A stretch of 64,000 bases of DNA. It comes from an uncultured Gemmatimonadales bacterium. GTDB taxonomy: Bacteria; Gemmatimonadota; Gemmatimonadetes; Longimicrobiales; RSA9. The stretch spans positions 64,001 through 128,000 of the forward strand of contig CAWCRS010000008.1 of assembly GCA_963798085.1 (NCBI GenBank), written 5' to 3'. Both the position numbers and the translations under genes were made by a program. How positions within the stretch are numbered: position 1 is the first letter of the stretch; the number at the start of each line of letters is the position of its first letter. Of this stretch, positions 58,021 through 63,507 are shown piece by piece. The notes beneath the pieces are model-generated. The model saw only the letters and a list, made by a program, of their open reading frames with translations, was not told the DNA's origin and ran no database searches.

Positions 58021-58549
58021 CTATTTCCCGACGGACGCCCGCAACTGCCGGGCCTCCCGGAGATGGGCCTCGAGCACGGGCTCCACCTTCTCGAGCAGCG
58101 CTTTGAGCTGCGGATTCTTCGCGCCGGGAACCAGCACCTGTGTCACCGCATCGATCACAGCCTGGTGATACGCGACTTCGCGGTCCGCATAGGCGACGTC
58201 GAAGGCGGCGCCGCTCAGGGGCTGCAGTCGGGCCCTGGCTTCGGTGGCGCCCTGCTGCAGCGCCCGGCTGGTGGTGTTGTCGGCCGGGGTCACGTGCAGC
58301 GCCTGAACCAGCGTCGTCGCCTGATCGATCACGCTTGCGTGATCCTGAGCCATCATGCGCGCGAACTGCAACACTGCCTGATTCCGGCTCTTCGACTGCG
58401 CCAGCTTCGCCATGTCAATGTCGATCTGGTTCGCGGTCACGGCAATGTGGGCAATCTCCGCATCAGTGGGTCCCGGCTGCTGAGCCCGGGCCAGCGCGGG
58501 CAGGGCCACGCTGACGATGAGACTGAATGCCTGCGATGCTTCGGCTCAT
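58021..58549 (-). CDS. DUF4142 family secreted ferritin-like protein; extra base near 58530
   Basis: TDAEIAHI..ANQIDI..FARMMAQDH..FDVAY..EVAYH..HL; ATG 58549 with RBS GGAGG is one base out of frame. Confidence 0.85.
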
Positions 58550-58790: not shown

Positions 58791-59408
58791 ATGGCGAAAT
58801 GGCACGAGCGCATGGCGGCCGGCACGCGGGGCCGCATCCTGGCGCTGCTGCGCCGCTCCGATCAGACGATCCCGGAGCTGGCCGAGTCGCTCGGGATCTC
58901 CGGGAACGCCGTGCGCGTGCACGTCGCGGCGCTGGAACGCGATGGCCTGCTGCATGCCGCCACATCGCGCAGTACCGGCGGCAAGCCGGCGCAGGTCTAT
59001 GCGCTGACGGATGCGGGGGTCGAGTTGTTCCCGCGTGCCTACGCGATCTTCCTTGCCGAGATGCTCGGTCTGGTGCTGGAACGCGACCGCGCCACTGCAC
59101 GCCGGCTGCTGCGCGAAGTGGGTCGCCGCGTCGGCTCGCGCCAGCCGGCCCGGCAGGGGACCGTGGCGGAAGGCGTACAGGCGGCGGCCGCGGCGTTGCG
59201 CCTGCTGGGCGGCAATGTGGAGGTGGAAGCGACGGGGACTGGATTTCGCCTGCGCGGACACGGCTGCCCGCTGCGCGCCGTGACGGCGCAGCAGCCCGCT
59301 GCCTGCGTGATGGCCGAAGCGTTCGTCGCCGCCGTGACCGGTCAGCCCACGACGGAAAAGTGCGAGAAGGGCGACCGGCCCCGCTGCGTCTTCGAGGTGA
59401 GAAGCTGA
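58791..59408 (+). CDS. ArsR/SufR-like HTH transcriptional regulator
   Basis: TRGRILALL..ELAESLGISGNAVRVHVAALERDGL..GKP..YALT; C-terminal GCPL..C..C..C. Confidence 0.88.
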   Translation: MAKWHERMAAGTRGRILALLRRSDQTIPELAESLGISGNAVRVHVAALERDGLLHAATSRSTGGKPAQVYALTDAGVELFPRAYAIFLAEMLGLVLERDRATARRLLREVGRRVGSRQPARQGTVAEGVQAAAAALRLLGGNVEVEATGTGFRLRGHGCPLRAVTAQQPAACVMAEAFVAAVTGQPTTEKCEKGDRPRCVFEVRS

Positions 59409-59601
59409 CCACCCGCAGCCGAAGCGGAGCAGAGCCGCGGCGGCATCGTCGCCTGAAATACGTTGTCAGGAAGATTGTGTCGGAGTGCGCCCGGCCTGCG
59501 CCGAAGCGCCGGGGACCGCTGCGCGCGCCTGCGCACGAATCAGGATCGCAGACCCAGCCCCAGCCGGCTGCAGCTCAGTTCCACTCCCGGCTGCCCGTGG
59601 G

Positions 59602-60004
59602 CTACAGGAGCCAGCGCAGCACGCGGAACACCCAGTCGGCGCTGGCGATCAGCGTGGGCAGCAGGGCGAGGCCGGCGGAGAAGGTGAGGCCCATGCGGAA
59701 GAGCACCGGGCCCGTGGGAAGCACCTTGCCGCCGCCCAGCTTTTCGATCGCGATCTCGGTCATGGGCCCGAACAGGTAGCAGAATGTTTCCCATCACGGC
59801 GAAGACCAGAACCGCGCCCAGCGGCAGCATCGCATGCGGGTCCGGCGGCAGCCAGGTGAGCAGCCGGATCACGCCCAGCGAAAACAGGCCGGCCGCCCCT
59901 ACGGCGAGGTTCCACTTCAGGCGGCGGGCCTCCCACCAGCGGAAAATGGCCGGGGCGCTGCGCGCGGCAGGCGCAGGAAAGAGGAACTCCGTGAGCGCGG
60001 TCAT
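59602..60004 (-). CDS. Three-TM membrane protein; frameshift near 59783
   Basis: WWEARRLKWNLAVG; removing one base gives NICYLFGPMTE..LFRMGLTFS..LL* with stop at 59602-59604. Confidence 0.75.
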
Positions 60005-60084: not shown

Positions 60085-60369
60085 TTGCAAAGTTGCGGAC
60101 CTGCCAACCCGCGCGCAGGCGTGCGGCATTGCGCGGATCCATTCGCGCAGAGGCGCGCAAACCGGCCTGGCCGGGCTGCCATGCGCACGACTGCAAGTGA
60201 CTGACAGGTCGTTAGTTGTGCGATCCGGTCGCGCTGGCCTGCCGGGTGCCTTGCGCGTCAGGGCCGCCGGGGTTCGGCGGTTCCCGGACGCGCGGACGCG
60301 GCCGGCCGCCGCCGCGCCGGGACAGGAAGTCACGCGCTCTCCAGAGAGCGCAGGGCAGGGAGGTGTGTG

Positions 60370-60685
60370 ATGCAACGTTCAGTCAGTCGGGTGGTGGCGG
60401 CGTGCGTGCTGCTTCTGGGCGGCTTCGCGATGGCGCTGAGCGCGAAGGAGGCGCTGGGCTGCGCCAACATGATCTCGGGTGACATCGGTCATCCGGTGAC
60501 GGGCTACCTGATCGGTACGGAGACCCGCACGCAGACGTGGACAGTGACAGTGATCACGGCGCCTGGCGGTGTGGGCGGATCGGCCGCTTCCACCGTTTCG
60601 GTCACGTACGACGTGGGATTCTACCGAGATGTCCGACGGCACACGGCTGGCTATCGACTGTCGGAGCTACGACGTCACTTCCTGA
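60370..60685 (+). CDS. Small secreted two-Cys beta-hairpin protein A (104 aa after correcting one extra base near 60625)
   Basis: RBS GGAGG, signal peptide ALSA/KE; corrected C-terminus GFY(E/Q)MSDGTRLAIDCRSYDVTS* aligns with the paralog at 61373. Confidence 0.8.
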
Positions 60686-60700
60686 GTCCGCCGTTCGGAG

Positions 60701-60723
60701 GGGACCGGCACCATGCCGGTCCC
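60701..60723 (+). terminator. GC-rich hairpin after peptide gene A
   Basis: GGGACCGGCA-CCA-TGCCGGTCCC perfect 10-bp stem; no U-tract. Confidence 0.5.
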
Positions 60724-61372
60724 GCTCCACGGCGCCCGTTGCGCCGGCTCCCGCCGCTGGTGTGTCCGTTGCGCGTGGCGCGCGAGGCGGCGGTGCGTCC
60801 CCGTCGCCCTGGCAGTGGGATGCGGCGTTGGCTGGAGTGACCGCGGCCGGTCGCCTCTAACCTTGTCTTAGCACCCATCCTCGCCGGGTCCGTCCGCGCC
60901 GCCGGGTGAGGGTTGCATCGCCTGTCCGGTTCATGGAATGCGACACGCGTGTCCTCGTCCGGCGCGTGCCTGCTGCCCGCGTCTCGCCGAATGTCCGATC
61001 CGGCTATGGCCTTCCGAAACCGCAATGACAACCCTGTCACGGCCGGCATCAGCCCCCGCCGCGCTGCAAGCCGGGCAGGCGCGAGCCGCGGCGGGTGGCG
61101 TACGTGGCGACGGGCGGCTGGGTCTGGCGCGCCTGGTGTCATTGGCGGGGTCCGTGTTCACTGGCTGCGCAGAAGCGGGCAGACATGGGAAGACCTGCGC
61201 AGTGCGGGACGCCGAGGCGTGCCTGCGATTCCTTCTAACTCACTGTTGCAGGAAGACCTGGAGCCGTGACGTCCGGCGGTCCGGGGTGTGCGTTGCCAGC
61301 GGGCAGGGGCGGCACTCGCGGTCGCAACAGATCGGCCGCTCTCTGCAACACACAACGCACCGGGAGGAAGAC

Positions 61373-61675
61373 ATGCGGGCATGGCGGGGAGCGGCGCTCA
61401 TTGCGTGCGCGAGCATGACGGCGCTGGCGTCGGCGCGGGCGCACGCCAAGGAATCGGGATGTGCAGACACGCTGAGCGGAGCGACGGGCAATGGCGAGCC
61501 GATGAGCGGCTACCTGCTGGGTGCGGAGACGCACACGTATTACTTCCCGTTCTTCTCCGGGGGTACGTGGATCCTGGCGCAGGGCACCTACAGCGAGGGC
61601 TACTACCAGTTCAGCGATGGCACGCGTCTGCTCATCAGCTGCGACGATCTGAAGATCACGGTCACGGGCACGTGA
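61373..61675 (+). CDS. Small secreted two-Cys beta-hairpin protein B (100 aa)
   Basis: RBS GGGAGG, signal peptide AHA/KE; GCADTLSG..GYLLGAET..GYYQFSDGTRLLISC. Confidence 0.82.
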   Translation: MRAWRGAALIACASMTALASARAHAKESGCADTLSGATGNGEPMSGYLLGAETHTYYFPFFSGGTWILAQGTYSEGYYQFSDGTRLLISCDDLKITVTGT

Positions 61676-61729
61676 ATGCCCGCGCGACCGGGAACGCAAC
61701 GAAATTCACCTGGACCGAGGGGGACCGAC

Positions 61730-62791
61730 ATGATGCGCTCGACAGGTCTGATCCGGCCGTCCCGGCGGGTCCGCATTGCCGCGCTGCTGCTCTGCGACGT
61801 AGTCGCGGGCTGCGGTGGACGGGTTGCCGACGCATCCGGCGTCATGGAGGAGCAGCGGCCATCGCTGGTGCTCGAGGCGGTGGAAGCGTCGGGTCCGAAG
61901 GCAGCAGGCGAGCACCCGGTCGAGCTGTTTCACACGACGGATCTCGCGCTGGTGGGTGACACGATCGTGCTGGTCGATTCGGGGAACGACCGCCTCGTGC
62001 TGCTGGACGCCAGTCTGAGTCCGCTCGCGGTGATCGGCAGGCAGGGAGCCGGCCCGGGCGAGTTCGAAGCGCCGCTCACCATCCGGACCGCGCCGGACCG
62101 GATGGTGGTTTACGAGCTGGGCAACGCGCGGTTCAATGTGTTCGAGCGCAACGGCGAGTTCCGCCAGGTCATTCCCGGGATCACGAGTGGTGGCTGGTTC
62201 GAAATGCTGAGCGACGGCCGCGTGGTCGTGCCGGCTCGGTCCGCCGCCAACTACCTCGCCTTTGCCGGCGACACTGCGCACGCTTTCGCCGGCCGTGTGG
62301 ACACGGCGCGCACGGAGCAGCAGATCAGGGCCGCAATGGAGGGGTTCCGGTACCCGCTGCTGGCGGCCACGGGTGACACGCTGCACGTGTTCGACGCGGT
62401 GGCGGGCGTGCTGCTCAAGTACGATGTCCGTGGCAGGCTGCTGTTGAAGCGAGCGCTGCCCACGGCGCTGCTCGATTCACTGAAGAGCGAGCTGCACGAC
62501 ACAATGGCGCCATTTCTGAAGCGGGGAGCGGTGATCGGTGGGGCGGGCGTGGCGAAGGGTCTGACGGTCACGCGCGATGGCCGGCTGCTGCTCCTGCTCA
62601 GCTATTCGCGCACGGTCGCGCTGCTGATAGACCCGGTGACCTATCGAGCGACCCGCATCATCGTGCGGGATGATGGGCCAGCAGCCACCAGCTTGCGTGT
62701 GGCGGCGGCGGCAGTGTACGCGCAGCCGAGGCTCTACGCGGTGACATCGGACAGCGTGATCGCCTATCGTCTGGGGCCGGCCACGAAATGA
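61730..62791 (+). CDS. Six-bladed beta-propeller (NHL-like) lipoprotein
   Basis: Lipobox VAGC; DTIVLVDSGNDRLVLLD..IGRQGAGPGEFEAP. Confidence 0.8.
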   Translation: MMRSTGLIRPSRRVRIAALLLCDVVAGCGGRVADASGVMEEQRPSLVLEAVEASGPKAAGEHPVELFHTTDLALVGDTIVLVDSGNDRLVLLDASLSPLAVIGRQGAGPGEFEAPLTIRTAPDRMVVYELGNARFNVFERNGEFRQVIPGITSGGWFEMLSDGRVVVPARSAANYLAFAGDTAHAFAGRVDTARTEQQIRAAMEGFRYPLLAATGDTLHVFDAVAGVLLKYDVRGRLLLKRALPTALLDSLKSELHDTMAPFLKRGAVIGGAGVAKGLTVTRDGRLLLLLSYSRTVALLIDPVTYRATRIIVRDDGPAATSLRVAAAAVYAQPRLYAVTSDSVIAYRLGPATK

Positions 62792-63507
62792 AGGATCGCG
62801 CCGCACCCGCCAGCATCGCGCGGACGCGTTTTCCCCTGATGCTCGGGCTGGCCGCGTGCGCCGGTGCAGGCTGGCTGGGCGGCAGGATCTGGAGCGCGCA
62901 GCGAGGCGCCGTGCAGGAACACGCAGTCAGGGGCTGGACAGGGATCCCATTCGCGGGTTCCGGCATCGTGGTCCCGGCGACGGCCGGCACCGCGACGAGC
63001 GGCACGCAGCCCGTGTTGCGCATTTTCGGCGATTACGAGTGCTCCGGCTGTCGCAGCCTCGAGGCGACGATCGGCGATTCGCTGCGTGCGCTGGCCGCGC
63101 GCGGTCGCCTGCGCCTCATCTACTACCAGGCCCCGTTACGGGCGCATCGCAGAGCACCCATCGCCGGCGCGTTGACGTATTGCGCGGAGGCGCAGGGCCG
63201 TGGCATTGCCGTGCAGCACGCTCTGTACGCCAGCATTGGCGCATGGAGTCACGATGCGCCGTTGCCCGCCATGCTGCGGGCTGCAGCCGGCGCCGACGCC
63301 GATACGCGGCGCTTGCAGACGTGCATGGCGAGCGGGTCAGGCGAGGCTGCAGTACGGCGCGACCGGGCACTGGCCGAACGCATCGATACGCGAGCGGTGC
63401 CGCTCATACTCCTGGACAGCATGCGACTCGAGGTCTCGTCCTGGCGCGCACTGCTTCGACATGTGAGGAGGCGATTGCTGCCTGATGACGTCCACGAGGG
63501 TGTGTGA
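62788..63507 (+). CDS. DsbA/thioredoxin-fold protein with N-terminal anchor
   Basis: ATGA overlap with the propeller gene; FGDYECSGC (CxxC), CAEAQG, AVP cis-Pro position. Confidence 0.85.
   Translation: MKDRAAPASIARTRFPLMLGLAACAGAGWLGGRIWSAQRGAVQEHAVRGWTGIPFAGSGIVVPATAGTATSGTQPVLRIFGDYECSGCRSLEATIGDSLRALAARGRLRLIYYQAPLRAHRRAPIAGALTYCAEAQGRGIAVQHALYASIGAWSHDAPLPAMLRAAAGADADTRRLQTCMASGSGEAAVRRDRALAERIDTRAVPLILLDSMRLEVSSWRALLRHVRRRLLPDDVHEGV

Follow-up and report, generated by a model that had tools for sequence, protein, structure and literature searches.

What are the two small, apparently exported proteins encoded near the end of this stretch of DNA, and what ties them to the β-propeller gene and the DsbA-like gene that follow? 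The window, meaning the whole stretch of 64,000 nucleotides (nt), corresponds to G000:C8:64001-128000 in a genome assembly (G000) of 6.2 Mb and 12 contigs, and database matches label the proteins of relatives as Gemmatimonadota or Gemmatimonadales. Four plus-strand genes are involved, in the order A (60370-60685, broken), B (61373-61675), propeller (61730-62791) and DsbA-like (62788-63507). We have analysed the two mini-proteins, their relatives and their neighbours, and the interpretation that we tentatively favour, at somewhat less than an even chance, is that of a minimal β-barrel pore toxin, likely exported by Sec, guarded by the propeller and used against competing cells.

As judged from their sequences, the mini-proteins constitute a real family that is both undescribed and unnamed. 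Pfam and NCBIfam contain no family that fits them, gene B included, in agreement with an earlier note on the window, which had recognised no named family; also, no description was found in the open literature searched (supplements and subscription papers being outside the scope), and plasmids and phages searched with one intact member, P0013, gave no match. A search with gene B alone retrieved two convincing relatives in 60 other genomes and four among 1.84 billion representatives, a match in G022 being rejected because it contains a stop and sits in unrelated genes. The genome-by-genome searches covered samples of Gemmatimonadota, which overlap and all include G000: profile matches at an E value of 0.01 were obtained in 33 of 401 genomes of the phylum, several of them weak, and the family was found in 33 of 401 genomes of the order and in 34 of 301 of the class. 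Seven weak matches in six genomes of the phylum search (E 0.0016-0.005) were left outside the 56 loci on which the counts below are based. The 85 distinct cores were sorted by hand into 64 of type A, with a Ser/Thr/Gly hairpin and mostly a CxxY motif, and 21 of type B, with an aromatic or Pro-rich tip and no CxxY, leaving out the broken or atypical loci L069, L070, L112, L122 and L123. Two Cys are invariant in all 85 cores, so that the pair noticed in the window holds across the family, and a GxY motif is essentially invariant; the invariance of the Cys points to a disulfide in the head of the protein. The precursors have 84-142 residues and 82 of 85 pass a crude charge-plus-hydrophobicity check for a signal-like N-terminus, which predicts export. 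The Sec signal proposed earlier is thus retained for most precursors, whereas the KE dipeptide before which it was said to be cleaved is not conserved across the family.

The earlier proposal of a β-hairpin fold is in agreement with AlphaFold monomers of the gene B protein and of the type A protein of G001, a genome of the same genus, both of which are predicted to consist of a single long hairpin carried by a small head, with the Cys near the ends (predicted local distance difference test, pLDDT, 86; predicted template modelling score, pTM, 0.64-0.65) and with the strands of gene B at residues 18-37 and 40-55. Foldseek searches of these models against the PDB and viral structures returned nothing at E below 0.001, the ESM Atlas gave no usable match and sequence-profile searches of the PDB gave chance matches alone. 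The VIA fold search reached Z scores of 4.5 and 4.2 at best, with a weak SH3/Tudor-like likeness of the head, and listed an aerolysin prepore (Z 3.3, root-mean-square deviation 4.3, 56 residues aligned) among unrelated rows. A complex prediction of four type A copies scored 0.21, with the mark at 0.42, and speaks neither for nor against assembly.

Two regularities of the type A hairpin carry our interpretation. The first concerns its length, taken as the distance from a conserved Leu to GxY: this equals 27, 31, 35, 39, 43, 47 or 51 residues in 43 of the 64 proteins, is one less in 18 and one more in three, and is two off in none. After clustering at 60% identity, 24 of 30 type A clusters fit this four-residue series, the p of 4e-10 for the series being inflated by kinship; gene A, with 35 residues, fits it, and so do six of seven type A members found later, five of these six being from one genus. 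Since two residues added per strand keep the same face outward, the orientation of the tip may be under selection. The second regularity concerns the two faces. Large hydrophobic residues make up 48% of one face and 7% of the other, in the same direction in 29 of 30, and the second face is 72% Ser/Thr/Gly (35% Thr, 24% Ser), so that the Ser/Thr tracts known as an aerolysin-type trait are present along the hairpin. In the 23 long hairpins, charged residues occupy 0-7% of the apolar face up to 10 residues from the tip, 20% at a distance of 11-14 and 37% farther away, a pattern that reads as a bilayer-deep apolar belt of about 10 residues at the tip, carried on a polar stalk of variable length. 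An amphipathic stem hairpin of membrane length is thus found in type A and is not clear for gene B. Separately, one type A member (L218:2929-3210) was observed to have an additional Cys pair across the hairpin, consistent with the predicted register.

The linkage to the propeller, claimed for the window, is a property of the family: a propeller of one clade follows the peptide gene within 400 nt in 52 of the 56 loci, the exceptions being one contig end and three type B genes that stand alone in genomes holding A and a propeller elsewhere, and every type A locus not interrupted by a contig end has one. By clade-level criteria the downstream gene is assigned to the six-bladed DUF5128/NHL propeller lipoproteins, as the earlier note had it. 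A search with the profile of the clade retrieved NHL propeller structures (best E 3e-46), and of 43 members 15 match PF17170 and five match NHL, while the window's own propeller matches neither at E 0.01 and no Pfam family below E 0.1; lipidation is predicted from its lipobox-like VAGC, a type of motif found in 44 of 53 clade propellers. In the reverse direction, the propeller profile matches 67 of 401 genomes at E 1e-25. Twenty strong propeller loci (E below 1e-35) are without a peptide match: two lie at a contig edge, one has a partial peptide, two have a head-only variant and 15 have none within 750 nt, about eight of these 15 propellers being full length. A gene that we take to be recN-like adjoins the propeller directly in G364 and G246 and is followed by A and the propeller in G392 and G313. 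One propeller of G246 is nearly identical to that of G580 and has a transposase-like gene upstream in place of the peptide, and two to four tandem propellers stand behind one peptide in G313, G430 and G592.

These genes also diverge fast. Among 13 loci of one genus, the mean identity is 94% and 90% for the flanking housekeeping genes (presumably gyrB- and glpK-like) and falls to 68% in the propeller, 65% in the head and 55% in the hairpin. On a FastTree phylogeny of 73 propellers the hairpin lengths are intermixed, which indicates that length changed repeatedly, the changes not having been formally counted, and in several genera the leader of type B is similar to that of type A in the same genome, which suggests that type B arose repeatedly by duplication. 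The propellers behave as immunity genes do, in that they change rapidly, are duplicated and remain where the peptide is missing. The genomic hallmarks of toxin-immunity pairs are all observed, namely a toxin not found without its immunity gene (the three solitary type B genes apart), orphan and tandem immunity genes, and fast divergence, and it is in this genomic behaviour that the toxin and immunity part of the earlier note finds support.

The features of the locus in the window are as follows.

60261-60285, plus strand: GC-rich (guanine plus cytosine) stem-loop located about 100 nt before gene A, probably within the mRNA leader.
60334-60351, plus strand: second stem-loop, a perfect 7-bp inverted repeat directly before the ribosome-binding site of gene A.
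60370-60624, plus strand: 5' part of gene A (type A mini-protein), encoding a signal-like N-terminus, the first Cys, the strands of the head, a two-faced hairpin of 35 residues and GxY.
60625-60628, plus strand: frame break in gene A caused by one extra base, which is probably due to an error of assembly; a single gap relative to L186.
60629-60685, plus strand: 3' part of gene A, read in the -1 frame and encoding the second Cys and the CxxY motif.
61373-61675, plus strand: gene B, type B mini-protein of 100 residues, with two mature Cys, a 27-residue hairpin and an aromatic tip, and no CxxY.
61730-62791, plus strand: six-bladed NHL/DUF5128-type β-propeller, predicted lipoprotein (Cys28), identified by clade-level profile matches.
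62788-63507, plus strand: DsbA-like thioredoxin-fold protein, accessory, with N-terminal hydrophobic anchor and CSGC active site.

The reading of gene A begins at 60370, moves to the -1 frame at the break and ends with the stop at 60685. When scored with a family profile built without it, gene A reaches 77.1 bits if read with an X at 60625-60628, the match spanning profile positions 2-74, whereas the two alternative readings give 52.1 and 50.1 bits; the 5' part of the gene has an E value of 4e-12 and the 3' part gives a separate match at positions 78-95 (E 0.03). The X reading is 49% identical to the intact P0013 over 105 residues, and the DNA alignment with the closest homologue, on metagenome contig L186, contains a single one-base gap at the break, in agreement with the extra base noted earlier near 60625. 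On L186 the genes follow one another as A-B-propeller-DsbA and A is unbroken; in G001, an unbroken type A gene stands with a propeller and a DsbA gene beside orthologues of the window's genes at about 53-58 kb. Since A is whole in L186 and the assembly contains many frameshifts, the extra base is likely an assembly error, about two in three by our judgement: of 48 conserved genes tested in G000, eight are split over frames, one of these being a tandem pair and not a shift, and one frame-split gene we take to be gyrB-like. No read or contig from the three DNA runs checked spans the break, and broken type A genes were also observed in other genomes (L069, L070). The frameshifts in conserved genes of G000 (e.g. 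C2:170824-172723 and C3:488263-490094) call for caution with other frameshift findings in this assembly.

Gene B, the propeller gene and the DsbA-like gene are intact. Gene B is preceded by GGAGG and is nested in a 245-residue open reading frame, which the earlier note had called spurious; in agreement, the part of this frame upstream of B looks non-coding, with codon-position GC of 0.70/0.66/0.72 as compared with 0.55/0.58/0.85 in B, and a short-read contig covering 61396-61657 of B differs by one substitution and no gap. A and B share 53% identity over 32 residues (E 7e-8) and 35% over 95 residues with the X in A, which upholds their proposed paralogy. They are not equivalent, A having the Ser/Thr/Gly two-faced hairpin and B the aromatic tip. 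The 687-nt spacer between them contains no recognised gene, and no remnant of a peptide, propeller or DsbA was found when looked for there.

The last gene qualifies as a putative oxidase of the DsbA type, with a match to Thioredoxin_4 (PF13462, E 3e-9), the CSGC motif and, in its relatives, CxxC and the VP (cis-Pro) loop, and it overlaps the propeller gene by ATGA, so that the coupled CxxC gene described earlier is recovered. Its place at the core of the module is not: a DsbA gene is present in 15 of 56 loci, distributed over four families as 9/10, 4/27, 2/2 and 0/17 (the last being f7), and we have rejected it as an obligate part and regard it as accessory. In G000, two VKOR genes and other DsbA homologues indicate that a host disulfide pathway exists; no DsbB match was found in this genome.

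As regards the leader of gene A, a stem at -100 to -108 is common to five loci of family f1, with a 9-pair consensus helix in which one core pair is changed on both sides in one of the five; the exact motif occurs 23 times in G000, and the evidence for the stem is thus modest. Several other loci have stems at about -35 that differ in sequence from the second stem-loop of A, observed without a shuffle control. Rfam gave no match, and a promoter and terminator scan remained at chance level. Short tandem DNA repeats lie directly 5' of peptide genes at L061 (upstream of 8223) and L165:2255-2310. Divergent from A is a small membrane-protein gene (59540-60004 and 59602-59763, minus strand), apparently split across two frames, probably by an assembly indel, and beyond it an exported DUF4142 protein (58021-58509, minus strand) is divergent from a helix-turn-helix regulator (58791-59408, plus strand), a pair that does not recur as neighbours among the 32 loci clustered. 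A large exported repeat protein (L006:2165-5110, L007:10893-13820) is encoded after the cassette in G023 and G010 and before it in G043.

If fold, export and lipidation are as predicted, the system could operate in five steps. The mini-proteins would be exported to the periplasm, where the head disulfide would be closed by DsbA or, where no DsbA is linked, by the host DsbA/VKOR pathway. The propeller would hold the monomers and block assembly in the producer's envelope. Released type A subunits would then assemble side by side, with the apolar belt of the tip facing lipid and Ser/Thr/Gly lining the lumen, each added four-residue step lengthening the stalk above the membrane. Type B, with its aromatic tip, might be a minor subunit that anchors or nucleates the assembly, or else a variant directed at a different target.

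A number of observations weigh against such a pore. The mature cores are mostly acidic and no receptor-binding domain is present, which leaves targeting unexplained. One of the type A members found later, with a 37-residue hairpin by hand count, is off the length series; a simple alternation score beat shuffles in 26 of 61 type A proteins, some hairpins being mis-parsed; the two faces are less distinct in type B (10 of 15) and form no clean pattern in gene B. Variants reduced to the head, their hairpin shortened to about 10-13 residues, stand beside the same or related propellers (L165:2348-2754, L173 upstream of 3726, L122:6203-6439), and variants with extra Cys also lie beside propellers (L123:5935-6249, L220:3513-3614, L221:2678-2866), keeping the same N-terminal head with an aromatic/Pro tip, so that the head can persist without a hairpin of pore length. 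The one sequence likeness to a pore toxin, in itself in favour of a pore, namely a segment of NetB aligned at E 1.2e-4 and, weakly, Epx, concerns one of 60 members and was picked after the fact, and three group profiles, that of the gene A clade included, match no pore toxin among the PDB profiles. Mapped with an inferred offset onto the residue numbering given in passages of PMC3565830, the NetB segment would fall in the prestem (residues 140-186). The orphan and tandem propellers may reflect a general expansion of propellers, G000 having 37 DUF5128 matches and over 50 weak matches to the propeller profile, only one in this clade. Finally, two faces and four-residue steps fit a fibre equally.

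Three other explanations deserve weighing. The mini-proteins could form a channel or ring in the outer membrane of the producer itself, with the propeller as a pilotin- or BamB-like assembly factor. The same hairpin chemistry and the strict linkage of A and propeller would be expected, and strong ribosome-binding sites together with the conserved stems of the leaders point to high expression. However, the patchy distribution (33/401), the fast divergence, the broken or lost peptide genes beside intact propellers and a stalk length varying from 26 to 51 speak against a resident channel, and we consider it unlikely. A low probability is also given to a monomeric, disulfide-locked ligand (a signal, kin tag or inhibitor), with the propeller as receptor or carrier and the hairpin as a variable display arm. 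This agrees with the acidic charge of the mature cores and with the head-only and extra-Cys variants; in addition, unrelated Cys-rich exported mini-proteins are encoded ahead of propellers of more distant kinship (L180 near 2073-2210, L185 upstream of 1717). Within one genus, the identity of the propellers goes with that of the hairpins (rho 0.38, from pairs that are not independent), but it follows gyrB too (rho 0.46), and an arm that hangs free would have no need to preserve steps of four residues or an apolar belt on one side. Among the 32 loci clustered, only the propeller and DsbA recur across unrelated loci and no regulator or transporter is conserved beside the cassette, for which reason signalling through a linked regulator was rejected. 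A ribosomally synthesised and post-translationally modified peptide or class II bacteriocin was likewise rejected: in place of the expected double-glycine leader the leaders look Sec-like, and in place of modifying enzymes or a peptidase ABC exporter the propeller and DsbA alone recur among the clustered loci. The least probable of the alternatives is a surface fibre or amyloid-like sheet with type A as major subunit, B as anchor or nucleator and the propeller as assembly platform, which would explain the register constraint of the two-faced hairpin, the aromatic-tip B copies in several lineages (beside A or in genomes also having A) and weak single matches to a fimbrial model and to choice-of-anchor E, yet sits badly with an apolar belt restricted to about 10 residues from the tip and not spread over the whole length, with most loci lacking type B and with orphan propellers being common.

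Were the pore toxin real, it would be a β-pore former about a quarter the size of small known ones and a candidate weapon between bacteria in a phylum that is abundant and for the most part uncultured; the hairpins would provide stems of naturally graded length, from which to learn how barrels assemble and on which nanopore work could draw, and a greatly expanded, uncharacterised propeller family (those 37 DUF5128 matches in the genome) would acquire a testable role. Even if it is wrong, a new small-protein family missed by curated libraries has been found. A broader proposal is possible, and we would rate it doubtful: a new class of minimal β-barrel pore formers, with a stem hairpin on a disulfide-closed head, a propeller guard, a four-residue stalk tuning to envelope thickness and an aromatic-tip paralogue as nucleator, would be the pore branch of a wider system of swappable mini-proteins and propellers of Gemmatimonadota.

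Three known systems invite comparison. In Bacteroidota, NVEALA (PF14055) loci have a small exported protein upstream of a DUF5128-like six-bladed propeller lipoprotein. The motif is different and the long two-faced hairpin belongs to the present family; none of 60 members matches PF14055 at E 0.1 and no match in the genome passes its cut-off, so that kinship with these loci is not supported.

The small β-pore-forming toxins, represented by α-haemolysin/NetB/Epx and aerolysin/lysenin, resemble the family, as far as they are covered in passages of PMC7914777, PMC4865846 and PMC3565830, in having one amphipathic hairpin per protomer. Descriptions of β-pore stems in the first two fit the hairpin pattern, and in the pore hairpins of lysenin Ser/Thr face the lumen (PMC4865846); these lumen-facing residues and the long stalks of lysenin would have their counterparts in type A. 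On the same partial descriptions, the toxins have about 300 residues, in contrast to about 70-95 in the family, which has no β-sandwich, rim, cap or receptor domain, has a hairpin predicted as already extended, a terminal disulfide and a dedicated propeller, and shows no family-level match in sequence or fold. Membership of the α-haemolysin/leukocidin family was rejected, the models being a hairpin plus a small head, with none of the β-sandwich, rim and latch domains that surround the prestem in that family, and the best Epx score 19.9 bits against a cut-off of 400.

The cholesterol-dependent cytolysin-like (CDCL) systems of Bacteroidota differ in that their proteins, in the portions of PMC11169675 considered, are large, of CDC/MACPF fold and in need of activation by a protease, with no sequence relation seen, and the lipoprotein BcdI is not described there as a propeller. 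In organisation, however, they come close to the pore toxin favoured here, as in the same portions they combine two related pore components with a co-encoded lipoprotein, BcdI, that blocks the pore toxin, and their targets are related bacteria.

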